Source: Candidatus Fimenecus stercoravium (GTDB lineage Bacteria; Bacillota; Clostridia; Oscillospirales; Acutalibacteraceae). Taken from it: 64,000 bases of DNA. The notes below the pieces were generated by a model. It made no database searches, was not told the origin of the DNA, and saw nothing but the letters and a program-made list of their open reading frames with translations. Shown here piece by piece: positions 35,628 to 47,896 of the stretch. Location of the stretch: the NCBI GenBank assembly GCA_018711545.1, contig DVIC01000029.1, positions 900-64,899 of the forward strand. Reading direction: 5' to 3'. The translations under genes and the position numbers were made by a program. Within the stretch, counting starts at the first letter, position 1. Each line of letters begins with the position of its first letter.

Positions 35628-35826
35628 GTTCAAGTTTTCGGCATTTCGCACAGCCACGGCTTTGCGCAGACCCACCTGCCCCACGTCTAACATCTAATAT
35701 CTAACGTCTAAAATCTAAAACGGCCAGCCGCAAGGGCTGTCCCTACGGATTGCGCGCATTTCGGCTTTCCTGCAAGCTTACCAATCCCGCGTCTGATATC
35801 TAATGTCTAACATCTAAAATCTAAAA
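35628..35826. repeat. composite repeat: two heptamer arrays flanking a CCCTAC hairpin box
   Basis: Array GTCTAAC ATCTAAT ATCTAAC GTCTAAA ATCTAAA (35685-35719); GGCCAGCCGCAAGGGCTGTCCCTAC (35722-35746); array GTCTGAT ATCTAAT GTCTAAC ATCTAAA ATCTAAA (35791-35825). Confidence 0.85.
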
Positions 35827-35851
35827 ATCGCCCCGTGCTTCCGCACGGGGC
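35821..35851 (-). terminator. intrinsic terminator closing the ten-gene surface operon
   Basis: Minus-strand GCCCCGUGC-GGAA-GCACGGGGC followed by GAUUUUUAG. It lies 69 nt after the stop of the last gene. Confidence 0.65.
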
Positions 35852-35919
35852 TAAATTAGATCTTACTTCATTTCTGTGCCGTGCGGCAAAATGCCGCGCG
35901 CGGCATGAAACGCCTTACC

Positions 35920-36873
35920 TTACACAGCGGTGTTTTCCTCTTCCTGCTGCTTCTTCTTTCTGCCCAGCAGGAAGAACAGGAACGGAATGCCGCCGAAGAT
36001 CAGCACGAGCGTTGCGCCCGCCGCCACGGGATATTCCCGGATCAGCGCACCGGTCTGGGTGATGATCGGGTTTTCCGTAATGGGCACTTCGGGCTCTGTG
36101 CCGGGGACAAGGGTAACGGTACCGTCGTCATTCACGACGAAGTCAAGCAGGATGCTTTCCGTGCCGGCAGGAACAGTCACAAGCTGTGTCCCGTCGGGGA
36201 GCTTCGTCACGGTGACTTCCGTTGCGGTCTCGCTTTCGGTCACGGAGAAATTCGCCGTGCCCGCCACCGTGCCGTCGGGGTCATAGACGGTCACGGTGTG
36301 GTAGCCGTCTTTGATGTCGTCCACGGCATATTCGCCGTCTTCGTTCGCAGCGGTCTCGATCTCGCCGAAGTCAAAGACCAGCCCCGCGTTCGGATACGGA
36401 TCGTCGCCGCGGTACACGCCGCCGCTTAAGGCGTAATGCACACATTCATCCGCGCCCTTGTTGGGATCCTCGGGGTCATATTCGGGATCAGAGGGGTCGA
36501 GGGGCTTCGCGTCCTCGCACTTTTGGAATGTAAACACGATGTCCACATTCGTATGCACGCCGGAAAGTATCAGCTGCCCATACTGCATCTGATCCGTCAC
36601 GTCCTCGCCGTTGACGGTGACGCTCTGGAGGTGATCCGTCGCCTGACAGATCACGCTGAGCGTAACGTCGTCAAAGCGTTCCACGGTAAGCGTCGCGCCG
36701 CTGGGCAGGACCTCGCCGCCATACAGGACATAACCGCCTTCGTTGTAAGTCACGGTAATTTCATGCTCGCCGGGTACGACCGTGCTTACCTCTACGCTGC
36801 CGAGTCCAAAGACGCCGAGCTGCATCGCGCAGCACAGCAGCAAGGCCAGCACGGCACTGCAAGCTTTTTTCAT
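35920..36873 (-). CDS. secreted protein with C-terminal TM anchor and basic tail (possible atypical sorting signal ITQTG); last gene of operon
   Basis: Signal peptide MKKACSAVLALLLCCAMQLGVFG. Beta-rich modules, including a CarboxypepD_reg-like YRGDDPYPNAGLVFDF...GEYAVDDIKDGYHTVTV. C-terminus ...PIITQTGALIREYPVAAGATLVLIFGGIPFLFFLLGRKKKQQEEE. Confidence 0.8.
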   Translation of the reverse strand: MKKACSAVLALLLCCAMQLGVFGLGSVEVSTVVPGEHEITVTYNEGGYVLYGGEVLPSGATLTVERFDDVTLSVICQATDHLQSVTVNGEDVTDQMQYGQLILSGVHTNVDIVFTFQKCEDAKPLDPSDPEYDPEDPNKGADECVHYALSGGVYRGDDPYPNAGLVFDFGEIETAANEDGEYAVDDIKDGYHTVTVYDPDGTVAGTANFSVTESETATEVTVTKLPDGTQLVTVPAGTESILLDFVVNDDGTVTLVPGTEPEVPITENPIITQTGALIREYPVAAGATLVLIFGGIPFLFFLLGRKKKQQEEENTAV

Positions 36874-36929
36874 GAAATCACCCCTTTCGAGTACTTCAAA
36901 GCCGTTTGTATGCTAAACAGTCGGCGTAC

Positions 36930-37412
36930 TTAAACGGCCGTATAGGTGACGGTGTAGGTCATGGTGCCGGTGTATTCGCCGACTGCAACGCCCTCGAAGG
37001 AAGAAACGGTCGCATCCAGATCTACGGTTTGGGAGGTCACATAGCCGGAGAAAGACTGCGCTTCAGTCGTGCCGGTAAGAGCGAAGGTCAGGGTGTCGTC
37101 GCCGACGGGATCCGTGTTCATCACGCCGCCGTCATTCGCAGCCGCAGCGACCTGAAGCGTCGAGCCTGCCACGAGGTTGCACGATACGGTGTAGTCGGCT
37201 GTGCCGCTGCTGGCGCCGTCGTTGTTCCACGGGATCGCAACGCTTGCGGGAACGGTCACGGTGTAAGTGTCATCCGCCGCATCCACAACGGTGTAAACGT
37301 CGATCGTTTCGGTCTGATCCGTATCCTGGGTGATGGGGTTCGCTGCAAAAGCAAGAACGCTGACAGAGAACATCATTACAACTGCAAGTGCTACTGCTAA
37401 AATCTTTTTCAT
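36930..37412 (-). CDS. small secreted paralog S7 (160 aa) of the operon-specific family
   Basis: MKKILAVALAVVMMFSVSVLAFA signal; YTVTVPASVAIPW...LTFAL...GEYTGTMTYTVTYTAV; own SD. Confidence 0.85.
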   Translation of the reverse strand: MKKILAVALAVVMMFSVSVLAFAANPITQDTDQTETIDVYTVVDAADDTYTVTVPASVAIPWNNDGASSGTADYTVSCNLVAGSTLQVAAAANDGGVMNTDPVGDDTLTFALTGTTEAQSFSGYVTSQTVDLDATVSSFEGVAVGEYTGTMTYTVTYTAV

Positions 37413-37460
37413 GGTTTTACTCCTTTATCAATTTCGATTTGTTCTGTTGAGCGCTTGTAC

Positions 37461-37934
37461 TCAAACGACTTCGACGGTGAAGGTCACGGTGTCGGTATAT
37501 GCCCCAACGGGGACGTCATCCCAGCCGGTGACCGCGATGGCCGTGGAACAGTTGGCGGACTCGACCTCGTCGGTCGTCACGTACGCCGCGTCTGCTGCAT
37601 CGCCCGACAGCGTGTACAGCAGGTTATCCGTGCCGTTGGTCAAGTTGCCGCTCGTCTTATTGAGCGAGATCTGAAGCTGCTCGCCAATGTTAAGCTGCGA
37701 GGTGTACGACCAGTTGATGGAGTCGCCGCCGGTCGTACCGTACCACGGAATGCTTACCGTAGCGGGGATCGTCACCGTAAAGTTCGCGGCAGGCTTGCCG
37801 TTTATGTCCGTCGTGAGGGTCACAACGTCAACCGGCGTTCGACCCGGCTGTGTAATGGTCTGGCTCGCAAAGGCGGGCACACAGACCGCGAACAGCATGA
37901 CAAGTGCAAGCGCAACAGAGAGAACCTTTTTCAT
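37461..37934 (-). CDS. small secreted paralog S6 (157 aa)
   Basis: ATG at 37934 follows AAAGGAG. MKKVLSVALALVMLFAVCVPAFA; FTVTIPATVSIPW...LLYTLSGDA...GWDDVPVGAYTDTVTFTVEVV. Confidence 0.88.
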   Translation of the reverse strand: MKKVLSVALALVMLFAVCVPAFASQTITQPGRTPVDVVTLTTDINGKPAANFTVTIPATVSIPWYGTTGGDSINWSYTSQLNIGEQLQISLNKTSGNLTNGTDNLLYTLSGDAADAAYVTTDEVESANCSTAIAVTGWDDVPVGAYTDTVTFTVEVV

Positions 37935-37973
37935 AGGCCTGCTCCTTTTCAAGAGTTATGTTGCGCCGTGCGA

Positions 37974-38459
37974 TCAGACGATGTCGACAACTTCGACCGT
38001 GAAGGTCAAGGTGTCGGAGTATGCCCCAACCGGAACATCGTCCCAGCCCGAAACAGCGATATTGATCGATTTCTCCGTCAAAGCGCAAACCGCCGCGCCG
38101 GTCGTGAACGCTGCGCCGACGGCATCGCCCGACAGGGTGTATGCCAGGTTATCCGTGCCGTTGGTCAAGCTGCCGCTCGCTTTGTCCACCGAGATGCTCA
38201 GCTGTTTGCCGGCTTCGAGCTGCGAAACATAAGACCAATCCAGCGTGTCGCCTTCGGTAGTGCCGCCCCACGGAATGTCTACGGTAGCGGGGATGGTCAC
38301 GGTGAAGCCTGCAACGGGGTTGCCGTCTTCATCGGTCGTCAGGGTCTGGAGCGTGGTGTCGCCCGTGCCGCCGTTGGTCGCGATATCCGTCGCGAACGCC
38401 GGAACACAGACCGCGAGCATCATAACGAGTGCAAGTGCGATTGCTAAAATCTTTTTCAT
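37974..38459 (-). CDS. small secreted paralog S5 (161 aa)
   Basis: ATG at 38459. MKKILAIALALVMMLAVCVPAFA; FTVTIPATVDIPW...LAYTLSGDA...GWDDVPVGAYSDTLTFTVEVV. It is the closest relative of S6. Confidence 0.88.
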   Translation of the reverse strand: MKKILAIALALVMMLAVCVPAFATDIATNGGTGDTTLQTLTTDEDGNPVAGFTVTIPATVDIPWGGTTEGDTLDWSYVSQLEAGKQLSISVDKASGSLTNGTDNLAYTLSGDAVGAAFTTGAAVCALTEKSINIAVSGWDDVPVGAYSDTLTFTVEVVDIV

Positions 38460-38526
38460 GGTTTTCCCTCTATTCATTCAGAAATTTTTTGTTGTACGCC
38501 AAAGCGCTTTGTTATGCGGTTTCGAT

Positions 38527-39006
38527 TTACACGTCCACGATCGAAGCCGTGAAGGTCAGGGTGTCGGAATACTCGGAAACAGGTGCTGCATCCCAAGCTT
38601 CCGTATCCACGCAAACGGTAAATGTGCAAGCCTGCGCATCCACCACGGGGCCGTCCATGACGGCGAAGCTGTTCTGGATCCAATACGCCAGCGTCAGGCC
38701 GTTTGTATCGGTCATCAAGAGGTCGCCGGTCGGATCATCCACATCTACGCGAACCGCCTTGTTCGGTGCAAGCTGCGAGGTAACGGTGTATTGGAAGTCG
38801 GTGCTGGTCGCGTCCCACGGAACGATGTTTTCCGCCGGGATGGAAACGGTGAAACCTGCGGCTTCCTCGCCGTCTTCGTTCTGCGTCGAAGTCCTGACAA
38901 CTGATTCGCCTGTACCGCCGTCAGCCGCAATATCTACAGCGAACGCCGGAACGCTGACCGCCAGCATCATGACGAGTGCGAGAGCAACTGCTAAAATCTT
39001 TTTCAT
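38527..39006 (-). CDS. small secreted paralog S4 (159 aa)
   Basis: MKKILAVALALVMMLAVSVPAFA; FTVSIPAENIVPW...LAYWI...EAWDAAPVSEYSDTLTFTASIV. Confidence 0.88.
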   Translation of the reverse strand: MKKILAVALALVMMLAVSVPAFAVDIAADGGTGESVVRTSTQNEDGEEAAGFTVSIPAENIVPWDATSTDFQYTVTSQLAPNKAVRVDVDDPTGDLLMTDTNGLTLAYWIQNSFAVMDGPVVDAQACTFTVCVDTEAWDAAPVSEYSDTLTFTASIVDV

Positions 39007-39043
39007 AGGTTTTCTCCTCTTTTCGGATTATGTCGTGCTGCTG

Positions 39044-39523
39044 TTAGATCGCAACAAGCTCTGCCGTGAAGGTCAGCTCGTCGGCATATTCCGAAACAAC
39101 AGCCGCATTCCAAGCCGCTTCTGCAACATTGACCGTGTAGGCAAACGCCTGTGCGTTTACAACGGGTGACGTTGTAATGCCGGTCGTATCCGCCAGCGTA
39201 TATGCCAGCGTGTAGTCGTTCTCGTCGGTCATCACATAAGCCTTGTCGGTATCATCCACCGTGACCTGCACGCCCGTGTTAGGGCCAAGCTGCGAGGTGA
39301 CGGTGTAAGTAAGGCTGGTGCTCTGCGCATCCCAATAGATTGTATTTTCCGCAGGGATGGTCACGGTAAAGCCTGCGCCGTCTTCGCCGCCTGCGGTCTG
39401 GGTAGAGGTCTTGATAATCGCCGTACCCGTGCCGCCGTCCGTTGTGATGTCTGCCGCAAACGCGGGAACGCAAACCGCCAGCATCATAACAACGGCAAGC
39501 GCCATAGCCAAAAGTTTTTTCAT
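39044..39523 (-). CDS. small secreted paralog S3 (159 aa)
   Basis: MKKLLAMALAVVMMLAVCVPAFA; ADITTDGGTG...FTVTIPAENTIYW...LAYTLADT...AAWNAAVVSEYADELTFTAELV. Confidence 0.88.
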   Translation of the reverse strand: MKKLLAMALAVVMMLAVCVPAFAADITTDGGTGTAIIKTSTQTAGGEDGAGFTVTIPAENTIYWDAQSTSLTYTVTSQLGPNTGVQVTVDDTDKAYVMTDENDYTLAYTLADTTGITTSPVVNAQAFAYTVNVAEAAWNAAVVSEYADELTFTAELVAI

Positions 39524-39559
39524 AATGGTTACTCCTCTCTAAGTGTTCTCAAGCAACGC

Positions 39560-40054
39560 TTACCCGACCAAGATCTCTGCCGTAAAGGTCAGGGTGTCGC
39601 TGTAAGTGCCGATCACGGCTTCGTTCCAGTCCTCTTCGGTCACAACCACATTCAGTGGAACGGTCACTGCCGGATAAACGTTGGGCTCCGTAGTCGCATA
39701 GTCCACGCCTTCGCCCATCAGCGCATACGGCAGGGGAAGTTCGACGCCCGCCTCAGGTGAATAGGACATGTAGCCCTGCTCGCCCGCTACGGTGACGGCC
39801 AGCGTCTCGCCGTAAGCAAGGTGGGTCTCCACCTCATAAGAGACGTCATAGGACGCTGCACCCCACGGGATCTCCTGATCCGCCGGGACCGTCACGGTGA
39901 AGCTTCTTGCATCATCGCCGCCGGAGGTCGTGGTCGCGGTCTTGATGATCACGGTGCCCGTGCCGCCGTCCGTCGTGATGTCTGCCGCAAAAGCGGGAAC
40001 GCACACGGCAAGCATCATAACAACAGCAAGCGCAATAGACAATACTTTTTTCAT
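39560..40054 (-). CDS. small secreted paralog S2 (164 aa)
   Basis: MKKVLSIALAVVMMLAVCVPAFA; ADITTDGGTG...FTVTVPADQEIPW...LPYALMGEG...EDWNEAVIGTYSDTLTFTAEIL. Confidence 0.88.
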   Translation of the reverse strand: MKKVLSIALAVVMMLAVCVPAFAADITTDGGTGTVIIKTATTTSGGDDARSFTVTVPADQEIPWGAASYDVSYEVETHLAYGETLAVTVAGEQGYMSYSPEAGVELPLPYALMGEGVDYATTEPNVYPAVTVPLNVVVTEEDWNEAVIGTYSDTLTFTAEILVG

Positions 40055-40092
40055 GGTCTTGCTCCTTTTATAAAGTTTTTTGACTTACGATT

Positions 40093-40545
40093 TTAAGCTG
40101 CGACATATTCGGCGGTGAAGGTCAGCACATCCGCGTGCCTGCCGGCAGCCGCCTGCGCCCACTGATCCTCGCTCACGGCAACGGACAGCGGGTAGACCGT
40201 GTCGATTGCGCCGGGCGCGAACACCATGGCGTCTGCCCCTGAAAGCGTATAGCCGATCGTCTTCGTTGCGTCCGCATCATTGACGAGGTTGAACGCATTC
40301 TGCGAATCGACCGTAACGCGTACGACGTGGTCATACGCAAGCTGCAGCTTGCTTGCCGTGACTTCCCCGAGCGCCTGTTCGGGCGCTTCCCAGGGGATCA
40401 CGGTGTCGGCGGGGATAGAGATCTCATAAGCTGCCTGGTCGCTTTGCGTGGAGATCTGCATGCTGCCGACGTCCTCTGCGAAGGCGGGCAGTGCGCAGAG
40501 CGCCAGCAGTACGACCGCCAGCCCCACGCAAATCATTTTTTTCAT
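40093..40545 (-). CDS. small secreted paralog S1 (150 aa), the most divergent member
   Basis: MKKMICVGLAVVLLALCALPAFA; YEISIPADTVIPW...IGYTLSGAD...DQWAQAAAGRHADVLTFTAEYV. Confidence 0.85.
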   Translation of the reverse strand: MKKMICVGLAVVLLALCALPAFAEDVGSMQISTQSDQAAYEISIPADTVIPWEAPEQALGEVTASKLQLAYDHVVRVTVDSQNAFNLVNDADATKTIGYTLSGADAMVFAPGAIDTVYPLSVAVSEDQWAQAAAGRHADVLTFTAEYVAA

Positions 40546-40618
40546 CCGACATCATCTCCTTTTTCGGAATTTCGTATTTTCATGGCGTATATCGTTAACC
40601 TTTTCAGGTGAACTTGCC

Positions 40619-43600
40619 TTACGGCGTTGTTGTGCCGTCCGAATAGGTGACGGTGTAGGTGATGGCGTCCGTCGCGCGGTATTCGCCGAGGGGTTTGCCC
40701 ACCCACTCGTCATCCTCTATTGTAACCGTGCTATAGCACTGAATCGAACTTCCCGCTCCCGGACCATAGTAAGTGGAGTCCAGATCACTGATGCTGCCGG
40801 AAATGGTATCCGTCGTGCCGGCGTTCGTCATGGTCAGGTTGTTGCCCTCCGCATCGACTGCGTTGGTCGCCGTCCCTTCCACTCGAAGCGTAGCGTCTGC
40901 GCTGAAGTTGTAGGAGGTCTCTGCGTAGTAATTGGTGGTTCTCGCGCCCCACGGGATCTGGACTTCCGCGTCCACCGTGACGGTGTAGAAGTCGCCGGTC
41001 GCGTAGTTGACTGTTAGCTGCTTTACATCGGTCGCTTCACGCAGGATGCCGTTGCGGTCGGTGTACTGGTAGGTGTAGGTCAGCGTCAGCGTATCGCTTA
41101 ATGCGCTGGTGGTCGGCTGTGCATTCGGGACCGTCACGTGCAGGGCGTTGTCCTGTCCCAGCGTTACATTGCTGATGGCTTGCCCGAACGTCACTGCGCT
41201 GCCGCCGAACGTAAGCGTGTACGGAAGGGTGATCGTGCCGTCTGCCGAGGTCAGATTGCCGCCCTTCGACGATGTGATTGTCAAGGTGCCCGTGCCGGAT
41301 GTGTCGGTCAGATAGCGCTCAAACTGTGTGAGTGTGTAAACGGGGTCGTTTGCGCTGTTGACCGCACCGGTCGAGGTGTCTCTATTGTCATACGAGAGAT
41401 CCATGGTGCTCGCCGACAGCGTTGCGGACACAGCGGGCGTCAGATCATACATCTGCTGGATGACGTCATAGAGCTCCGCTACGTCGTGGTAGGTAGCAAT
41501 GAGCGACTCATACTCGGCGATGGTGTTGAGGAGATTTGTGCGGTCGGTCGCCGTGAACGTGCCGTCTGCCATCTTCTGCGCGGCGTCCTCGTACTGCGCC
41601 TGATACTTATCCAAAAGCTGCACCACGCCGCCGTTCACCGGCTGACCGCTTGCATTGGTATAGGTATCGGTATTATTCAGCAGCTTTTCGCATGCCTCGG
41701 AGACATTTTCCACGCCGTCGCGGATGCTGCCGTCCGCCATGAGAACTTTGGCGAAGTAGTTGTTGTTCCGATTGAAATTGGTGAGTGCCGTTTCGAGCGT
41801 TGCAATATTTTCGTCGCTAACGGAAATAAAGAAGCCTTCATTGACCGTCGCACCGTTCTCCGTCCAGGAGCCGTAGGGCTTGGTCTTGTCGTAGGTACCG
41901 CTCGTCGGGTAGACGTTGCCGTCGCCCGCGACGCCGAGACTGCCCGTTGCCGCCCTGTCGGGATACAGCTGCGACATGGTCTGGTACAGGGCGTCTGTGC
42001 CGCCCGTATACAGCGAGCTCAAGAAGGTCAGCGACTGTGTGAGTGCGGGTTCGAGCGAAGCTACACAGCGCATCGCCGCATTGTAGGCGTTGAGGAACTG
42101 CCGGCTCTGCTCAGGGAACTGATCTTTTTGGCTCTGCGTCCATTTCGAGTAAGAGTTATTGTACCACTCGATGATCTGCGCCGCGCTCTCCGCCGTCAAG
42201 CCGTAGGCAGCATAGTTCACCGCGTCCGCCGTACCGTCCGTACCGTCCGTATCGACCACGCCGGGATACGGCAGGTCATATTCGCCGGAGGTATTGCCGT
42301 CCGCGACCGCCAACGTGCCGCTCAAGCCGAGATTGTCAAAATAGGTGTTAAAGAGTGTGGAGGGCGTCCATGCGGCTGTATAAGCCGAAATCTCCTCTGT
42401 GGTGGCGTTTTGATACGCCTGCAGCTGCGTGTACGCCTGCTGCGTAGAGTGGAAGCCCTTTTCCGCGTCGGTCAGCGCATTATACAACAACTGTGCATTG
42501 TTCAGCGCCTGCATGAACTCGGTGCTCCATGCCGTGCTGTTGGCGGCACTCGGTTCGAGCGCGGCAACGGCTTCTTCAAATTCGTTCTGGTACTGGGATT
42601 TGATGCCCAGCACTTCGCCGAAGGTCGAGTGAACCGTCGTACCCGTATTATAGTCCGACGTGTAGCCGAAGCCGATGTTGTCGATGACAAAGGTCTTGCC
42701 CTCGAGTGCGTCCGACGATGCAGCACTGTTGTCCGGGGCGATGCCGATGTTCACGCGGTAAATGCTGTTCAGCCCGGCTGCATATTCGCTGAGCTTGACG
42801 GCGCCCGTGCCGCCAGTGGTCGCCTGCGTCCAGTTGTCCTTGAACTGGTAGAGGGGGATCATGATATATCCCTCGTAGCCGGCGAGCGTCAGGCCGTTGG
42901 TCGTCACGTCGGAGCTAAAGTAGTTTGCGCCGTGCCCGCTGGCGGAGCAGTCGACCCACTCACCGGTGCGCATATCCATCAGATAGATGCTCTTATTGGC
43001 CTCACTGTCGCCCATGGCAAGGGTAAAGTCGTTCGTGCCCGAGCCGTCGCGGTGCGAGCCCGTTGTGATGGACGCGGTCAGCTTGAAGTCGGAAAGCTGC
43101 GAGAAGTCCGCGTAGAATACCAAACCGAGCGGGAAAGTGCTGCTCGCTGCGTTGCCGTTGGGACCCTCCAGCACATCGCCGAGGTTCACAATGCCCATGT
43201 TGTGCGTCATGGCATCGTTGTTATCGCCGTCCAGGGCGGAATAGCTGTCGAGCGAGACACTCAGGATATTATACATGCCGTTCCCGTTGCCGCCGCTGGA
43301 GCCGCTGCCGTTATAATACGAAGAATTGATGGCGACCGCAGCGCCGTGCGTCCCGTTAAAGCCCGCGTCCGTCACCGTCGCCTTGGTGCCGTTAATCAGC
43401 GTGTCCCCTCTTTCGGTGCCGTCCACGATGGTACCGTTCTGCATGGGATCGGCATAATTGCCCGCACTGGGACTGTTCGCATCCAGCTGGCTGTTGTCCC
43501 AAGTGCCGAGGAAGGTGCGGGTGGTGGAGCCATAGGTCAAAAAGCCCTTGGTATAGCGATAGTCGCCGTATCTCCACATACCGTTGGGGTCGTTTTCAAA

Positions 43601-46048
43601 CAAATCGGATTCCGTGCCGATTGAAAGCGATTCAAAATCGTTGAACAGCACAAATTTGTTGCGCGCCAGCGTGTTGCCCGCGACGTCTAAGTCGGTGCTC
43701 GAATCGACACCGACCAGGGCGACGTATTCGAGCAGCTTTTGCTCCTCCGCCAAAGAAAGCGCATTGAGCTGTGCCAAACTCAAACGCGTATAGAGCGAAT
43801 ATGCGCGAACGATCTCGGTCTCCAGCGCGTCGCTGACAGAGGAGACCGTAGAGGGATCGGGCAGCTTTTCAAGGGAACGCACCAGCTGCGCCACAAGCCC
43901 CGTAGCCCCTTCGTCCGCCGCGTTTTCATAGCCCGTGTCGTTGTTGGACGGATAGGTGTAGGTGCCGTCGTCATTTTGAATGATCGTGCCCGCTTCCACG
44001 CACAGGTCGCGCGCCGTGGTGAATTTTGCCCACACGGAGGTAAGCCCCAGCGACGCTGCCGTTGCGGCTAAATTCTCTTCCGAAAGGAAGTCGTTGCCGA
44101 CCGAGGAACCGGCGTAGCCCTGCCGGTAGCCGTCAAGCATCTCGGAAATATACTGCACCGCACGGTAATCGCCCTCGTCCGGGAAGGTGATCAGCGCATC
44201 GATCTGATTGAGGATCGCGCGCGGGATTTCGGTTTTCTGGTCGTAGTAATCGGTCAGCGGGAGACCGTACTCGCCTTCCGTCATGTCGTTCGGATAATTG
44301 CCCTCCGACTTATAGAACATGACGGAATCCATGTAAAAGCTGTGGTTGACGCTGTCGGCGCTCATGTTTGTGTATGAGAAGCCCGCGCCGCAGATGTCGT
44401 CAAGCGCCTTATAGCCGTTTTCGCGGTTTAAAATCACCGCGTTGCCCTCGGCATCCTTATAGACTGTACCGTCAGCGTTTAACTGAACATACGCTTTATT
44501 GGTCATATCCGTGTTGCAGTCGTCTCTGCTCGGTCCGACAGCAAGCATGGAAGCGCCCCAATTGGGCCTTTCCAAAGCCGCATAATGGTTCGCGCCCGTG
44601 CTCGGATAATCATTGTGATACGGCATGGTGTAAACACTGTTGTTCGGATTGCCGGTTTCCTCGTCTGCCGAACTGTTGCCGCCAAACTCATTTACATCTA
44701 CGTCTATGGAAAGCTGGCGGTATTGGAGCAGCAATGCTTCGGAAATCGGTGTGCCCGCCGGGTCAACCAGCACCTGTTCGCTCAACAGGACTTTATTGTC
44801 AAACTGTGCTTTTTTTCCACTCTCGTTGCCGCCGCCGAGATCTTCCGCCAAACCATTTCCGCCGAAGCCGAAGTTATCGTTGCGCGCTTCCGCATACGTG
44901 GGGGTCGTAGAACAGACAAATTGGACAGGCACACGGATATAGCCCTTGTAATTCGCAAGATCAATTCCGCCGTTTTCAAGCGCGACCGACTCCCACGAAC
45001 CGTCGTCTGCCTGAATATAGACATAGCCGTCGTTGCCCGTATATCCTTTGGTGGAATAGGTCACGGTGCTGTAGTCGTCATCATTGATAGAGCCATAGAG
45101 GTATACGACGCCCTGCCCCCACAAGTCGTCCCAATAGTATTCCTCGTACCGCTTGCCCTGCGTTTTCAGTTCAAAGGCAAGACCTTCGACCGAGACCTGG
45201 GAGAAGTCGAACCAGAACCAGATTTCCTCGGCATCCTCCGCGATCCAGTGCTGGCGTGACCATGTCGTGTTAAAGGACTGGTCGCCCGTGCCAACCACCT
45301 GGAAGCGATAGGCGCCCGAGCCGCCGTCGCCCGCATAGGGTGCCTGCCCGTAGAAGCTAAGCTGGTTCGCGCCCGCGCTGCTGGAAGCGATGTAATCCAG
45401 TCTGCCGCCGCCCGCGCCGTTGTCCGAAACATAGCCCATATTATTATTGTTCCGAGCTTCGAACATCAGCATTTCGCGCATGCCCGTCTCGTTTTCGACA
45501 AGCGGGGTATACGCTTCCTCGTCATATTCAAAGCGCGGTACGTCGGAAACGGTGGTCGTGATTGCGTCCGAGACCCAGCCGGTGCTGTCCTGTGCAAGGA
45601 CCTCCACGCTCAGGCGGTGCGTGCCGTCCATTGTGATGCCTGCGGACTCCAGCTGTTCTGCAGGGAAGGTCACTTCAAAGGTGTTCTCTACCGCGAAAGT
45701 GACCGCAGTCGCGTCCCGCGTGATCTTTGCGGAAGGCACATCCTCCGTCGCCGGGTCGTCGTGCACCTGTGTATACACCCCTAAGTCATACAGCGTTATG
45801 TAATAGGTCGCTATAGACTTGGTGATGTACTCGGTGTTCACGGTCGCCTCGGGAACGGAAACCGTCACATCCCCTTCCTCCGTTTCCCACGCCCACAGGG
45901 TCGCGTCCTCCGCGAACGTCGGGGTCGGGTCATACGTCCCCGCGCTCAGAGGTGCCGCAAGTGCCAGGGGCAGGGAAACCGCCACCAGAATTGCACTCAT
46001 CAAAAGCGCGGTGACACGTTTCCAGACTTTCAACCTCTTTTCTTGCAT
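40619..46048 (-). CDS. 1809-aa secreted multidomain giant protein ending in two tandem copies of the small-paralog domain; no recognisable wall or membrane anchor
   Basis: ATG at 46048 follows GGAAAGGAG. Signal peptide MQEKRLKVWKRVTALLMSAILVAVSLPLALAAP. Two internal similar beta-sandwich-like modules and helical segments. C-terminus ...FYTVTVDAEVQIPW...DEWVGKPLGEYRATDAITYTVTYSDGTTTP. No LPXTG motif and no terminal hydrophobic tail. Confidence 0.88.
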   Translation of the reverse strand: MQEKRLKVWKRVTALLMSAILVAVSLPLALAAPLSAGTYDPTPTFAEDATLWAWETEEGDVTVSVPEATVNTEYITKSIATYYITLYDLGVYTQVHDDPATEDVPSAKITRDATAVTFAVENTFEVTFPAEQLESAGITMDGTHRLSVEVLAQDSTGWVSDAITTTVSDVPRFEYDEEAYTPLVENETGMREMLMFEARNNNNMGYVSDNGAGGGRLDYIASSSAGANQLSFYGQAPYAGDGGSGAYRFQVVGTGDQSFNTTWSRQHWIAEDAEEIWFWFDFSQVSVEGLAFELKTQGKRYEEYYWDDLWGQGVVYLYGSINDDDYSTVTYSTKGYTGNDGYVYIQADDGSWESVALENGGIDLANYKGYIRVPVQFVCSTTPTYAEARNDNFGFGGNGLAEDLGGGNESGKKAQFDNKVLLSEQVLVDPAGTPISEALLLQYRQLSIDVDVNEFGGNSSADEETGNPNNSVYTMPYHNDYPSTGANHYAALERPNWGASMLAVGPSRDDCNTDMTNKAYVQLNADGTVYKDAEGNAVILNRENGYKALDDICGAGFSYTNMSADSVNHSFYMDSVMFYKSEGNYPNDMTEGEYGLPLTDYYDQKTEIPRAILNQIDALITFPDEGDYRAVQYISEMLDGYRQGYAGSSVGNDFLSEENLAATAASLGLTSVWAKFTTARDLCVEAGTIIQNDDGTYTYPSNNDTGYENAADEGATGLVAQLVRSLEKLPDPSTVSSVSDALETEIVRAYSLYTRLSLAQLNALSLAEEQKLLEYVALVGVDSSTDLDVAGNTLARNKFVLFNDFESLSIGTESDLFENDPNGMWRYGDYRYTKGFLTYGSTTRTFLGTWDNSQLDANSPSAGNYADPMQNGTIVDGTERGDTLINGTKATVTDAGFNGTHGAAVAINSSYYNGSGSSGGNGNGMYNILSVSLDSYSALDGDNNDAMTHNMGIVNLGDVLEGPNGNAASSTFPLGLVFYADFSQLSDFKLTASITTGSHRDGSGTNDFTLAMGDSEANKSIYLMDMRTGEWVDCSASGHGANYFSSDVTTNGLTLAGYEGYIMIPLYQFKDNWTQATTGGTGAVKLSEYAAGLNSIYRVNIGIAPDNSAASSDALEGKTFVIDNIGFGYTSDYNTGTTVHSTFGEVLGIKSQYQNEFEEAVAALEPSAANSTAWSTEFMQALNNAQLLYNALTDAEKGFHSTQQAYTQLQAYQNATTEEISAYTAAWTPSTLFNTYFDNLGLSGTLAVADGNTSGEYDLPYPGVVDTDGTDGTADAVNYAAYGLTAESAAQIIEWYNNSYSKWTQSQKDQFPEQSRQFLNAYNAAMRCVASLEPALTQSLTFLSSLYTGGTDALYQTMSQLYPDRAATGSLGVAGDGNVYPTSGTYDKTKPYGSWTENGATVNEGFFISVSDENIATLETALTNFNRNNNYFAKVLMADGSIRDGVENVSEACEKLLNNTDTYTNASGQPVNGGVVQLLDKYQAQYEDAAQKMADGTFTATDRTNLLNTIAEYESLIATYHDVAELYDVIQQMYDLTPAVSATLSASTMDLSYDNRDTSTGAVNSANDPVYTLTQFERYLTDTSGTGTLTITSSKGGNLTSADGTITLPYTLTFGGSAVTFGQAISNVTLGQDNALHVTVPNAQPTTSALSDTLTLTYTYQYTDRNGILREATDVKQLTVNYATGDFYTVTVDAEVQIPWGARTTNYYAETSYNFSADATLRVEGTATNAVDAEGNNLTMTNAGTTDTISGSISDLDSTYYGPGAGSSIQCYSTVTIEDDEWVGKPLGEYRATDAITYTVTYSDGTTTP

Positions 46049-46210
46049 CGTCTGAAAGCTCCTTTCCGATTTTGGATTCCGGAGGCCGCAGCCCCGGTCT
46101 ACGAATACCGCCAAAGGCGGAGATATTTGACAAAGTTTGCTTGGATACTGTTTCGTCGGATACGATTGGGCGGGTTTCTGCGCGCCCACGGCTCCTTTGA
46201 AAACCTGATG

Positions 46211-46275
46211 TTTTCTGCTGTAGGGGCGGGGCTGTGCAAAAATTTAATCGTTTTCACAGCCGAAAGTCACCCGGT
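46211..46275. repeat. fragment of the REP-like element inside the operon (between gene 1 and the giant gene)
   Basis: CTGTAGGGGCGGGGCTGTGCAAAAATTTAATCGTTTTCACAGCCGAAAGT matches 47973-48030 and, in reverse complement, 30085-30110 and 60500-60535. Confidence 0.7.
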
Positions 46276-46325
46276 TCATCCGCTTACGCCTGTTCGCGGG
46301 GAAATCGTTTTTCGCTTGCCCCGCC

Positions 46326-47141
46326 TTATTCCGCTTCTTCCGCGATGATGACCGTCTTGAAATCCATTTTGTTCAAGGGGCGCTGCTCGCTGTCAAAGCT
46401 GAAGGTGTCAAAATGCACCACGACGTCATATTCGCCCGCGTCGAGCGCCCGATCCAGCGTGAAGCGGGAGATCGAATAGCCCGGCGGCAGCAGATCCGAC
46501 GTATAGATCGTTTCGCCCGTGTCGGACAGGGTGATCGTGATCCGGAAATAGCAGGGGTTGACCTCGGGGTTGGAGAATATGTAATTCTGCTCGAGCTGCC
46601 CTGCGACGAAGTGCATTTCCGTAATGCCCGTGAACTTAATGTTCGCGCCGGCCGTGTCGATATGCTCGGGGACGTCCAGCTCCCCTTCGCCGAGCTGCGC
46701 GTTCGGGTCGACCACGCCAAGCGGCGCGGTGGTGGTCTCCGGCTGTGTGCTCGCTTCGACCGCCGCGCGGATGCCGAACGCAAGACCTGCGATGAGCGCC
46801 AGCGCCAGCAGCGCGAGCAAGATCCACAAAAGCAGCGTGTCGCGCATGACGGCGATATAATCGTTGCCGCCGACGGGCACGTAGCCCGCCACGCGCTTGT
46901 GCGCGAGCTTCGCGACACTGTAAACGATCTCCTCGCCCTCGCCGCCCGACGAAAGCGTACCGAGCTGCTCGCGTCCCGCGCCGATCTGCCCGCGGACGTT
47001 GAACCCGCCCGACGGGTACAGCGTCTTCATATCCTTGCGCTTGATATAGGAAACGGTAAAGTTTGCAGAAGAATTGTTATACGTCCCGCGCGCCTCGCCC
47101 GCGCCCGAATAATCTGCATGAAACAACAGGGGTTCTGCCAA
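46326..47141 (-). CDS. bitopic membrane protein (cytoplasmic ~100 aa, one TM, extracytoplasmic ~145-aa beta-rich domain); first gene of operon
   Basis: TTG start lies 7 nt after GGAGGT. TM is TLLLWILLALLALALIAGLAFGI (aa 102-124). The external part reads ...NPEVNPCYFRITITLSDTGETIYTSDLLPPGYSISRFTL...GEYDVVVHF. Confidence 0.75.
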   Translation of the reverse strand: MAEPLLFHADYSGAGEARGTYNNSSANFTVSYIKRKDMKTLYPSGGFNVRGQIGAGREQLGTLSSGGEGEEIVYSVAKLAHKRVAGYVPVGGNDYIAVMRDTLLLWILLALLALALIAGLAFGIRAAVEASTQPETTTAPLGVVDPNAQLGEGELDVPEHIDTAGANIKFTGITEMHFVAGQLEQNYIFSNPEVNPCYFRITITLSDTGETIYTSDLLPPGYSISRFTLDRALDAGEYDVVVHFDTFSFDSEQRPLNKMDFKTVIIAEEAE

Positions 47142-47208
47142 GTTGAATACCTCCGAATTCGGTGAAAATAGAAAATTGCGACAATAACCCTATAATTAGG
47201 GATGTATT

Positions 47209-47238
47209 ATTATACCGTCTGCGGAAACAATTTGTCAA
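47209..47238 (-). promoter_or_regulatory. near-consensus sigma-A-type promoter of the surface operon
   Basis: Minus strand reads TTGACA (47238-47233)-18 nt-TATAAT (47214-47209), in a visibly AT-rich 47.16-47.39 kb spacer, ~65 nt upstream of the TTG start. Confidence 0.55.
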
Positions 47239-47493
47239 TAAAATATTAAAAATTTATCGGAAAAAAACACTTATTTTTCGCGGATTGTCGTTTCTAACTG
47301 AGCGATTTGCACAAAGTTCGATGAAGTTTTTTCACAAATCATTCAAACGCCTTGCATTTTATGCACACAAACCGGCAGCGCGCGCCGCAGGGGGTTGGGC
47401 GTGCCGCCGCCGGTTTGCGCCCAGCATCGGACATTTGTGCCCGGTACCGACAAAAGAGCAAGAAACGCAACAAAACGTTACAATAAAGTCAAG

Positions 47494-47727
47494 GTGATAG
47501 GTTTGGTTGGGCTAAAAGAAATCCGCAAGCGCCGGGGCTTGAATCAGCAGAAGGTCGCCATGGACTTGCACATCACGCGCGAAGCGCTCTCGCAGTACGA
47601 GAACGGCAAGCGGGAGCCGGGGCAGAAAATGCTTATTCGTATGTCGGAATACTTCGACGTGTCCATTCAATATCTGATCACAGGGCACGAATTCCAAAAG
47701 AAGCATCCCGACCCGCCCCGGCATTAA
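47494..47727 (+). CDS. XRE-family helix-turn-helix transcriptional regulator (~77 aa), divergent from the surface operon
   Basis: LKEIRKRRGLNQQKVAMDLHITREALSQYENGKREPGQKMLIRMSEYFDVSIQYLITG is a typical HTH_3 domain. Start is GTG 47494 or TTG 47503. Confidence 0.85.
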   Translation: MIGLVGLKEIRKRRGLNQQKVAMDLHITREALSQYENGKREPGQKMLIRMSEYFDVSIQYLITGHEFQKKHPDPPRH

Positions 47728-47896
47728 ACCAGCAATCGGCGTCTTTCCGCACAGGCGGGCGGTTTACGGCGCGCCCTTGTGCACGTTTTCCTGAATTTCC
47801 CAAGGGTCTGTTTTGCATTTTAGCCCCATGGCATGCCGTTTGCAAGGGGCGCGGGGCGAATGACCGTGTTGCGCGTGTGAAAAGCGCGGGCGCCGG

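Follow-up and report, generated by a model that had tools for sequence, protein, structure and literature searches.

What might a gut bacterium assemble from seven small, related, secreted proteins whose genes lie head to tail beside the gene of a giant one? This question is raised by a 64,000-nucleotide (nt) stretch of DNA from Candidatus Fimenecus stercoravium (contig DVIC01000029.1; hereafter the window, to which all coordinates refer), in which positions 36930-40545 hold seven head-to-tail open reading frames (ORFs), all on the minus strand, with products of 150-164 amino acids (aa), designated S1 to S7. They belong to an operon that reads, on the minus strand, promoter match, bitopic membrane protein, giant protein, S1-S7, stalk protein, and terminator hairpin. 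The genus Candidatus Fimenecus is placed in Clostridia incertae sedis, Clostridia are a monoderm class, and the protein family of S1-S7 is found in human and chicken gut Clostridia. The operon suggests that monoderm gut Clostridia bear a cell-surface appendage that has gone undescribed until now; it is rated here among strand-complemented surface assemblies of immunoglobulin (Ig)-fold proteins with a WxL-like organisation. In the reading favoured here, which is tentative and held at slightly less than an even chance, S1-S7, the giant protein, and the stalk are linked by strand complementation into an ordered chain, through which the giant adhesin is attached to the anchored stalk. No earlier description of this system was found in the collection of papers searched.

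The seven subunits and their predicted fold

S1 (40093-40545, 150 aa) is of a "first-position" type with a short N-terminal extension, GSMQISTQS, and is followed by S2 (39560-40054, 164 aa), S3 (39044-39523, 159 aa; the subunit used for the AlphaFold2 model), S4 (38527-39006, 159 aa), S5 (37974-38459, 161 aa from MKKIL), S6 (37461-37934, 157 aa from MKKVL), and S7 (36930-37412, 160 aa), which is of a "last-position" type with the C-terminus TMTYTVTY. In a mechanical ORF list, S5 and S6 (37974-38477 and 37461-37952, minus strand) start six residues (18 nt) further upstream, at ATG and TTG, respectively; the MKK starts at 38459 and 37934 are preferred, as they agree with the paralogs and with where the ribosome-binding site lies. 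The intergenic gaps measure 36-67 nt, and a GGAG-type ribosome-binding site precedes every gene. The seven proteins are alignable end to end, with pairwise identities of 26-58%. For mature sequences, identities are 26-36% to S1 and 23-54% to S3, the value of 23% being that of the C-terminal domain of the giant protein, and the S3-S4 pair is the closest (54-58%). A hidden Markov model (HMM) of the family picks out S1-S7 far beyond chance (E 1e-25 to 1e-43) and, in the rest of the window, nothing at E<0.1 apart from the giant protein, which confirms the seven tandem paralogs noticed in a preliminary description of this DNA.

The same description claimed near-identical signal peptides ending in AFA and a four-block signature, and both claims stand in the main. 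The signal peptide MKK(I/V/L)L(A/S)x(A)LA(L/V)VMM..(C/S)V(P/L)AFA is present in six of the seven proteins, and S1 carries a variant that ends in LPAFA. All seven proteins have block 1, (F/Y)xVx(I/V)PA...(I/V)(P/Y)W, and the C-terminal block 4, W..A.VG.Y.DTLTFTAE, the latter in variant form in S1 and S7, and six have block 3, LxYTL. Block 2, YxVxSxL, is matched strictly in four of the seven, and its variants are WSY(V/T)SQL in S5 and S6 and EVTASKL in S1. The last strand has the conserved motif Y-x-D-T-L-T-F-T; as had been noted, the first WxL motif (GWxL) is missing, and the W of the second is replaced by F or Y, the sequence there being T-F-T or T-Y-T in all seven. Among 136 diverged family members, W64 is the sole invariant residue, P57, A58, L79, Y146, and T151 are conserved in >=90%, and outside the four blocks the subunit sequence is strongly divergent. 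The LAVC of the signal peptide had suggested a lipoprotein, a reading that was dropped because the cysteine is replaced by serine in S4 and S7 and the residue before it is unfit by the lipobox rule.

The Sec-type signal peptide leaves mature subunits of 127-141 aa that are strongly acidic (D+E 14-23 vs. K+R 0-4). Each begins with an N-terminal extension, composed of a short strand motif (e.g., IIKTSTQ) and a Gly/Asp-rich linker, which lies ahead of the Ig-like sandwich, and each stops 2-6 residues past the last strand; cell-wall and membrane anchors are absent from S1-S7. The broad search with a family profile that the preliminary description had called for recovered a large family. A word-indexed profile search gave 665 relatives, the best 120 of which are all 140-176 aa long and all without Pfam domain or name, and an exhaustive HMMER search of 1.84 billion representatives gave 2800, 628, and 118 clusters at 50% identity for E-value limits of 1e-3, 1e-10, and 1e-30, respectively. 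The 90% cluster of S6 contains HIS04710.1, a hypothetical protein of Candidatus Fimenecus stercoravium.

AlphaFold2, supplied with a 71-sequence alignment, models S3 as an all-beta Ig-like sandwich with a predicted local distance difference test (pLDDT) value of 91.3. The strands of the model are 51-55, 68-78, 83-91, 97-99, 105-111, 114-116, and 121-132, followed by a short helix at 135-140 and a last strand at 150-158; residues 24-50 have pLDDT values of 77-91 and form no regular strand. This all-beta model, together with the absence of any Pfam or NCBIfam match, supports the earlier proposal of a divergent family of beta-sandwich subunits. The top 50 matches of the S3 model in a Foldseek search of the PDB are mostly chaperone-usher pilins, with MSP/PapD-like Ig domains interspersed. 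The best is CsuA/B bound to its chaperone (6fqa_D, E 1.8e-3, probability 1.0), with template modelling (TM) scores of 0.39/0.46 normalised over 159 residues, signal helix and extension included. Next come the pilin domain of the CsuE tip subunit (6fjy_D, E 2.0e-3) and the Csu pilus (7zl4), and further down the pilin domain of PapG, PapE, CFA/I, PsaA, FimG, FimA, and Caf1; a search against viral structures gave nothing useful. Mean-field direct coupling analysis (DCA) of 266 sequences (effective number 167) reveals one clear ladder, an antiparallel pairing of the last strand (153-157) with strand 86-90 (z 5.4). In chaperone-usher pilins, the F strand adjoins the C strand, a position to which that of the last strand of S3 would correspond. 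As modelled, then, the subunits are Ig-like sandwiches whose nearest solved relatives, at a modest score, are the chaperone-usher pilins, above all those of the archaic SCPU type.

The cassette and its components

The cassette set comprises every opened locus with a stand-alone family member. In all seven cassettes, i.e., that of the window and six loci from diverged genomes, the layout is shared wherever the contig reaches, and no cassette gene has a Pfam match. The human gut locus L003/L004 encodes a membrane protein of 263 aa, a giant protein of 1772 aa, five small subunits, and a stalk of 322 aa; the corresponding figures are 278 aa, 1684 aa, nine, and 480 aa in L010, 264 aa, 1710 aa, six, and 342 aa in L011, and 263 aa, 1699 aa, five, and 325 aa in L014. 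In L015, a membrane protein of 278 aa and a giant protein of 1866 aa are followed by at least three small genes before the contig ends, the stalk lying beyond it. The closest genomes to the window are metagenome-assembled genomes labelled "uncultured Clostridia bacterium" (L001/L002), in which the contig ends before the first gene, and which carry giant proteins of 1541+ and 1848 aa, seven small subunits, and stalks of 317-319 aa. The small subunits number five to nine in the six cassettes that have the full small-gene set and the stalk. No sortase, signal peptidase, usher, chaperone, or ATPase was found in the seven cassettes, and no TLxTC sortase signature lies in a credible frame of the window.

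The order of the small genes is conserved at both ends. The first encodes a distinct short type (147-157 aa, N-terminus SMxIST), and among the four cassettes compared S1 and the first small genes of L003, L010, and L011 are reciprocal best matches (49-67%). The best matches of S7 are the last small genes of L003 and L010, and the last type (TMTYTVTY) is positionally conserved in three of the four cassettes. The number of middle small genes varies between cassettes. The first and last types are thus positional orthologs between which the middle ones expand, as would be expected of an ordered hetero-oligomer.

The giant secreted protein (40619..46051, minus strand; 1810 aa from MQEKRL, signal peptide ending in LALA) is proposed to be the distal adhesin; searches of Pfam, NCBIfam, and PDB sequences found no match to it. 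With all giant sequences left out of the HMM, a subunit-like domain is still detected in the last ~135 residues of the giant protein (40631..41032, minus strand) at an independent E-value (i-E) of 3.3e-11, and this domain includes VKQLTVNY, a strand alignable with the N-terminal one of the subunits. Two copies of the domain had been claimed for this protein; the C-terminal one is solid, and the penultimate one (41057..41284, minus strand; HMM positions 70-142) is partial and marginal (i-E 0.0021). In other family members, a BspA-type leucine-rich repeat (LRR) domain (LRR_5, E 1e-48 to 1e-87) is fused to a C-terminal subunit domain. These fusions (P0221, P0226, P0249, and P0204) are ~290-470 aa long, and at least one is an orphan gene amid housekeeping genes. 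Because the LRR fusions, the orphan included, carry it, the subunit domain is a reusable C-terminal module of large adhesin-like proteins, and its place at the end of the giant and of orphan LRR proteins suggests a layout of adhesin plus pilin domain. P0204 had been considered a natural tandem of two subunit domains, a candidate that was rejected, the protein consisting of an LRR-like domain and one subunit domain. Of the LRR-fusion loci, L012 has two sortase genes ~8-10 kb upstream and a cohesin-domain gene ~3 kb downstream, and at L013 the cohesin-domain gene alone falls on the contig. The central third of the giant protein (41600-43000, minus strand) reads as helical repeats, e.g., AWSTEFMQALNNAQLLYNALTDAEKG and LLDKYQAQYEDAAQKMADGTF, which recall the spacer repeats of Gram-positive giant adhesins; its central part has no Pfam match at E<=1.

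The stalk, or anchor, protein (35920..36873, minus strand; 317 aa) is encoded by the last gene of the cassette. It consists of a signal peptide, an invariant N-terminal segment, (S/K)TVVPxxHEITVTYNEGGY, three beta-sandwich domains, the motif NPIIxxTGALIRExP, and, at the C-terminal end, a transmembrane helix followed by an RKKK tail, and its 260 relatives, of 311-387 aa, are without Pfam match. Conservation is highest at the mature N-terminus, L(K/S)TVVPxTHEITVTYNEGGY. The C-terminus (35920-36060 in the window) reads NP(I/V)I(S/T)(Q/K)TGALIRE(N/Y)P, hydrophobic segment, RRKK, and acidic residues, and the motif is conserved in 49 homologs. This TG motif has an unusual conserved spacer and no sortase nearby; the non-canonical clostridial sorting signals NVQTG and SPKTG resemble it. 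AlphaFold2 (pLDDT 85) predicts beta-sandwiches at residues 36-118, 146-214, and 221-257 and one long C-terminal helix at 273-316, and leaves residues 23-35 unstructured at low confidence; a conserved N-terminal segment that is unstructured in the monomer behaves as is typical of segments that become ordered on binding. Foldseek matches the model to generic tandem-Ig stalks (streptococcal protease stalks; PitA, BcpA, RrgB, EbpB; soluble domains of ushers). A role as a PapD-like or WxLIP-like chaperone was considered and is unsupported, since no PapD-like chaperone is among the Foldseek matches, and comparison with WxLIP gave neither a WxLIP_PGBD nor a WxLIP_HBD Pfam match and an hhalign probability of 0.6%.

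The bitopic membrane protein (46326..47141, minus strand; 271 aa) is encoded by the first gene, and for it, too, Pfam, NCBIfam, and PDB sequences yielded no match. Its orthologs can be aligned with it from residue 1 onwards, which confirms the TTG start. It comprises two conserved parts on either side of one hydrophobic segment: the N-terminal one (~100 aa, presumably cytoplasmic) contains YPAGGFNV.GQVGKG..E.GV, and the C-terminal one (~150 aa, presumably outside) contains PPGYSIS and an invariant Cys. Orthologs of 263-278 aa take the first position in L003, L010, L011, L014, and L015. Of those aligned (L003, L010, and L011), two are 53% and the third 38% identical to it, so that this protein is better conserved than the subunits (roughly 30-45%).

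At its ends, the operon is marked by candidate signals. A promoter-like site of the sigma-70 type (47209..47238, minus strand; TTGACA, 18 nt, TATAAT) agrees with the consensus at 12/12 positions and is the only perfect match in 35700-47800, in a scan that looked for the sigma-70/sigma-A consensus alone. A hairpin resembling an intrinsic terminator (35830..35851, minus strand; 9-bp stem with 8 G-C pairs and a T-rich tail) lies 69 nt past the last cassette gene. Divergent from the cassette is a small gene for an XRE-type helix-turn-helix (HTH) protein (47395-47727, plus strand), whose promoter-like site, TAGAAA-16-TATAAT (47169-47196, plus strand), stands back to back with that of the cassette; an HTH_3 gene adjoins the cassette in L010 and a two-component system in L003. 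The XRE-type protein is a possible local regulator of the cassette.

Relation to known families and systems

Pfam and NCBIfam returned nothing for all ten cassette proteins of the window, weak matches being traced to the signal peptide, and when PDB sequences were searched with the family profile and with the giant and membrane proteins, the sole matches were those of signal peptides to Fab constructs. Lenient Pfam scans covered 71 family members at E<=10 and 136 diverged members at E<=1, with the 25 most-matched families listed for each set. WxL (PF13731) is not among these 25 in either set, and S1-S7 have no WxL match at E<=1. SCPU (PF05229) is matched by two of the 136 and by none of S1-S7, with a best score of 16.7 bits (E 0.0098) against a cut-off of 22.4 bits, and DUF4402 by 14 of the 71 and two of the 136, all below threshold (best E 0.0046). 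No known family reaches its threshold in the 7 + 207 family proteins scanned with Pfam, or, for the seven, with NCBIfam.

The preliminary description had likened block 4 to the last strand of SCPU proteins and to the second WxL motif region, and block 3 to the L.Y.LY segment of SCPU, and had held that the superfamily could not be decided by reading the sequence. For the comparison of profiles, the WxL reference was taken from Bacillus tropicus and Pediococcus plasmid clusters (Pfam 72-213 bits) and expanded to 124 sequences, the SCPU reference consisted of eight subunits from the A. baumannii csu, Pantoea, and Burkholderia operons, and the family profile for hhalign held 267 sequences. Against WxL, hhalign gave a probability of 0.5% (P 0.12) over 16 columns, aligning FTVTIPA..IYW with PLSIDYVSNIEFG; against the SCPU profile of only eight sequences, it gave 4.4% (P 0.0092) over 24 columns, aligning the extreme C-terminal strands of both. 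Greedy extension yields a collinear alignment with SCPU over 120 columns, through IPWG~lDFG, LxYTL~aYxlY, and the last strand, and a likewise collinear one with WxL over 114 columns. The scores of the real and reversed profiles are 20.5 vs. 11.7 for SCPU and nearly the same, 15.0 vs. 12.9, for WxL, and three of 60 block-shuffled SCPU profiles equal the real score. Because of these reversed controls and shuffles, homology with SCPU or WxL is not established by sequence alone. The likenesses to SCPU and WxL seen by eye are real but weak. They coincide with the best local matches: the extreme C-terminal strand, in block 4, is the top local hhalign match to SCPU, and block 3 lines up in the greedy alignment. 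Both probabilities are far from the near 100% of a canonical WxL or SCPU domain, which bears out the caution about the superfamily; as judged by these profile comparisons, none of them significant, the family can be assigned to neither.

A comparison of the two reference profiles with each other (124 vs. eight sequences) has as its best local match "..i.FG" / "tlDFG", after the first strand (P 0.046). This motif coincides in position with the invariant IPW(G) of the present family, and the present family, WxL, and SCPU all terminate in G-x-Y-x-x-T-h-T-h-T-h. These shared features, which are not significant, could hint at a deep common origin of the three families.

At the level of organisation, the nearest counterparts are the WxL (Csc) clusters, which encode small WxL proteins (signal peptide and domain), a large WxL protein that ends in the domain, and WxLIP (PMC9772566, PMC10599100; Hassan and Williamson). 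WxLIP (DUF916-DUF3324-TM) measures 320-380 aa, with two Ig-like domains between its signal peptide and its C-terminal transmembrane helix (PMC9772566, PMC10599100), and AlphaFold2 multimer predicts that one of its strands fills a gap in the WxL sandwich (PMC10599100). Common to these clusters and the present cassette are a large protein ending in the shared domain, tandem small proteins consisting of the domain alone, and an anchored Ig-like protein, and the Bacillus tropicus plasmid cluster (L006) has the same gene order. The WxL domain also resembles the present one: its N-terminal strand is attached through a long linker without structure, and its last strand contains a conserved aromatic motif. 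By contrast, WxL clusters, known from Lactobacillales and Bacillales, usually have one or two small proteins, whereas the present cassette, in a clostridial host, has five to nine, strongly acidic ones, lacks the small LPXTG protein, and has an additional bitopic membrane protein; neither its domain nor its anchored partner has detectable sequence or profile homology to the WxL components. The present cassette is thus an organisational twin of the WxL clusters without detectable homology.

The archaic chaperone-usher pili (Csu, SCPU) provide the best structural matches and share a mature subunit size of ~130-140 aa, an N-terminal extension, a last strand with G-x-Y-x-D-T-h-T-h-T, a tip adhesin with a C-terminal pilin-type domain, and several paralogous subunits per operon. 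They differ in that the present cassettes contain neither chaperone nor usher and the host has no outer membrane to house the latter, that all eight SCPU subunits examined contain Cys with no conserved counterpart in the present family, and that the present adhesin fusions keep their N-terminal strand and a membrane-anchored stalk stands at the base. Polymerisation by donor-strand complementation without an outer membrane is known in TasA/TapA, in archaeal fibres, among which the threads are donor-strand fibres (PMC9715654), and in monoderm CPR bacteria, whose Pam pili have been reported together with putative chaperones (bioRxiv 10.64898/2026.03.03.709456). The chaperone-free fibres (TasA/TapA of Bacillus and the archaeal threads, bundling pili, and cannulae) and the Pam pili resemble the present system in their beta-rich or Ig-like subunits (Ig-like being reported for the Pam pilins). 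No sequence relationship to TasA, archaeal, or CPR fibres was found, and these are mostly homopolymers, unlike five to nine ordered paralogs with a giant and an anchor. TasA-type families turned up neither in the Pfam scans nor in the fold search with S3, Pfam and NCBIfam gave no match to TasA or camelysin (Peptidase_M73) in cassette proteins, and the cassettes contain no peptidase gene.

Sortase pili likewise have an operon with tip adhesin, shaft, and basal subunit, the stalk model is similar to PitA, BcpA, RrgB, and EbpB, and the end of the stalk (I-I-x-x-T-G, hydrophobic segment, basic tail) resembles a sorting signal. S1-S7, however, end at the last beta-strand without an LPXTG-type signal, and no sortase is present in the cassettes or the window. 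Endospore appendages (Ena, F-ENA), whose subunits differ in architecture (PMC11844507), were dropped as candidates: the Sec signal peptides speak against assembly in the mother cell, the promoter match, from a scan for that consensus, is of the sigma-70/sigma-A type, and the Enas match on the stalk is faint (E 0.55).

Proposed assembly and its meaning

In the chain that we tentatively propose, beta-strand complementation would connect the modules head to tail, with the N-terminal strand of one module completing or extending the sandwich of the next distal one. The order would be giant adhesin at the tip, S1, the middle subunits, S7, and the anchored stalk, with S1 as the adaptor to the giant protein, the middle paralogs as a variable shaft, and S7 as the adaptor to the stalk, whose invariant N-terminal strand would cap it. 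In favour of this chain speak the pilin-like fold of the S3 model with the DCA pairing of its last strand, the recurrence of the domain at the end of the giant and LRR proteins, the self-contained operon and its conserved layout, the positional orthology of the first and last subunits, the conserved but unstructured N-terminus of the stalk, and the precedents of the WxL-WxLIP prediction and of donor-strand fibres in CPR bacteria and archaea. Assembly would proceed without usher, periplasmic-type chaperone, sortase, or ATPase, and the bitopic membrane protein encoded by the first gene would be the only candidate assembly factor.

Several observations weigh against such a chain. In the S3 monomer, residues 34-43, the N-terminal strand segment, are not a regular strand despite pLDDT values of 88-91, and the segment is polar, Thr-rich, and weakly hydrophobic, unlike classical donor strands. 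The C-terminal domain of the giant protein and the LRR fusions retain this strand. Tip adhesins of chaperone-usher pili are not known to carry a donor strand, and a strand kept in adhesin fusions could instead be an integral element acting in cis. DCA, too noisy to place the N-terminal segment, reveals no reliable pairing of this segment with the last strand, and the resemblance between the stalk N-terminus and the subunit extension is seen by eye only, profile comparison giving it no support. Finally, the structural scores are modest, with the best TM-scores at 0.39-0.46 and no Foldseek match at E<1e-3.

The alternative that survives best, which we consider unlikely though far from negligible, is a non-polymeric complex like that proposed for small WxL, large WxL, and WxLIP, in which the small proteins and the C-terminal domain of the giant would dock singly or in pairs on the stalk and/or the wall, the many paralogs offering docking platforms that are alternative or redundant. 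Real WxL clusters agree with the cassette in their components and in gene order (PMC9772566, PMC10599100), as does that of Bacillus tropicus, the WxL domain shares the N-terminal strand on a linker and the aromatic motif in the last strand, and orphan LRR proteins with a C-terminal subunit domain far from any cassette would suit a docking module. A platform of two, however, does not explain five to nine paralogs with conserved first and last types, the fold search yields pilins, and homology is undetectable, both for the domain in scans and hhalign and for the stalk against WxLIP; the strong acidity is, as a circumstantial point, odd for a peptidoglycan binder.

Less probable still, and indeed improbable, is that the paralogs are independent Ig-like monomers, secreted or loosely associated with the surface (variable antigens, decoys, or ligand binders), which are merely co-transcribed with the giant gene. 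The missing anchors, the confident and compact model of S3, the divergence outside the four blocks, and the absence of an interface signal in coevolution would all be accommodated. Against this stand the four-part cassette conserved in seven of seven diverged loci, the positional orthology of the first and last types, the C-terminal reuse of the domain in giant and LRR adhesins, which points to an interaction module, and the placement of conservation in core blocks and the terminal strand, not in ligand-binding loops. That S1-S7 are ordinary members of a known family missed by annotation (SCPU, WxL, TasA/camelysin, sortase pilins, or spore appendages) is highly improbable, for the sub-threshold SCPU and DUF4402 matches and the Csu proteins at the head of the fold search are outweighed by the lack of a threshold match in all proteins scanned, the low hhalign probabilities, the clostridial host, and cassettes that have neither chaperone nor usher, nor LPXTG on the subunits, nor a sortase in the window.

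The strand-complemented chain can be extended to a bolder claim, to which we give a substantial chance, though clearly less than an even one: that the operon specifies a new class of pilus-like appendage, an ordered, Csu-like heteropolymer that is joined by donor strands, exported by Sec, and assembled without chaperone, usher, sortase, or ATPase, tipped by an adhesin of ~1800 aa or an orphan LRR adhesin, and rooted in the membrane by the stalk. A corollary, if this is true, is that the present family, the SCPU pilins, and perhaps the WxL domains are of common origin, which would link the chaperone-usher pili of Gram-negative bacteria to the surface complexes of Gram-positive ones.

The subunit family numbers 2800 clusters at E<=1e-3, and none of the cassette components is named, belongs to a Pfam family, or has a relative of solved structure. 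The four blocks and the cassette layout provide a usable definition of a new protein family, by which thousands of hypothetical proteins could be annotated. If polymerisation by strand complementation is true, it would constitute a new assembly route for Gram-positive surface fibres and a bridge between chaperone-usher pilins and WxL-type complexes; if there is no polymer, the logic of WxL systems, i.e., small protein, large protein, and anchored partner, would be extended to Clostridia with unrelated sequences. How the abundant, uncultured Oscillospirales-like bacteria of the gut attach to food particles, mucus, and cells is poorly known, and an operon that displays an adhesin of ~1800 aa is a direct candidate for this attachment.

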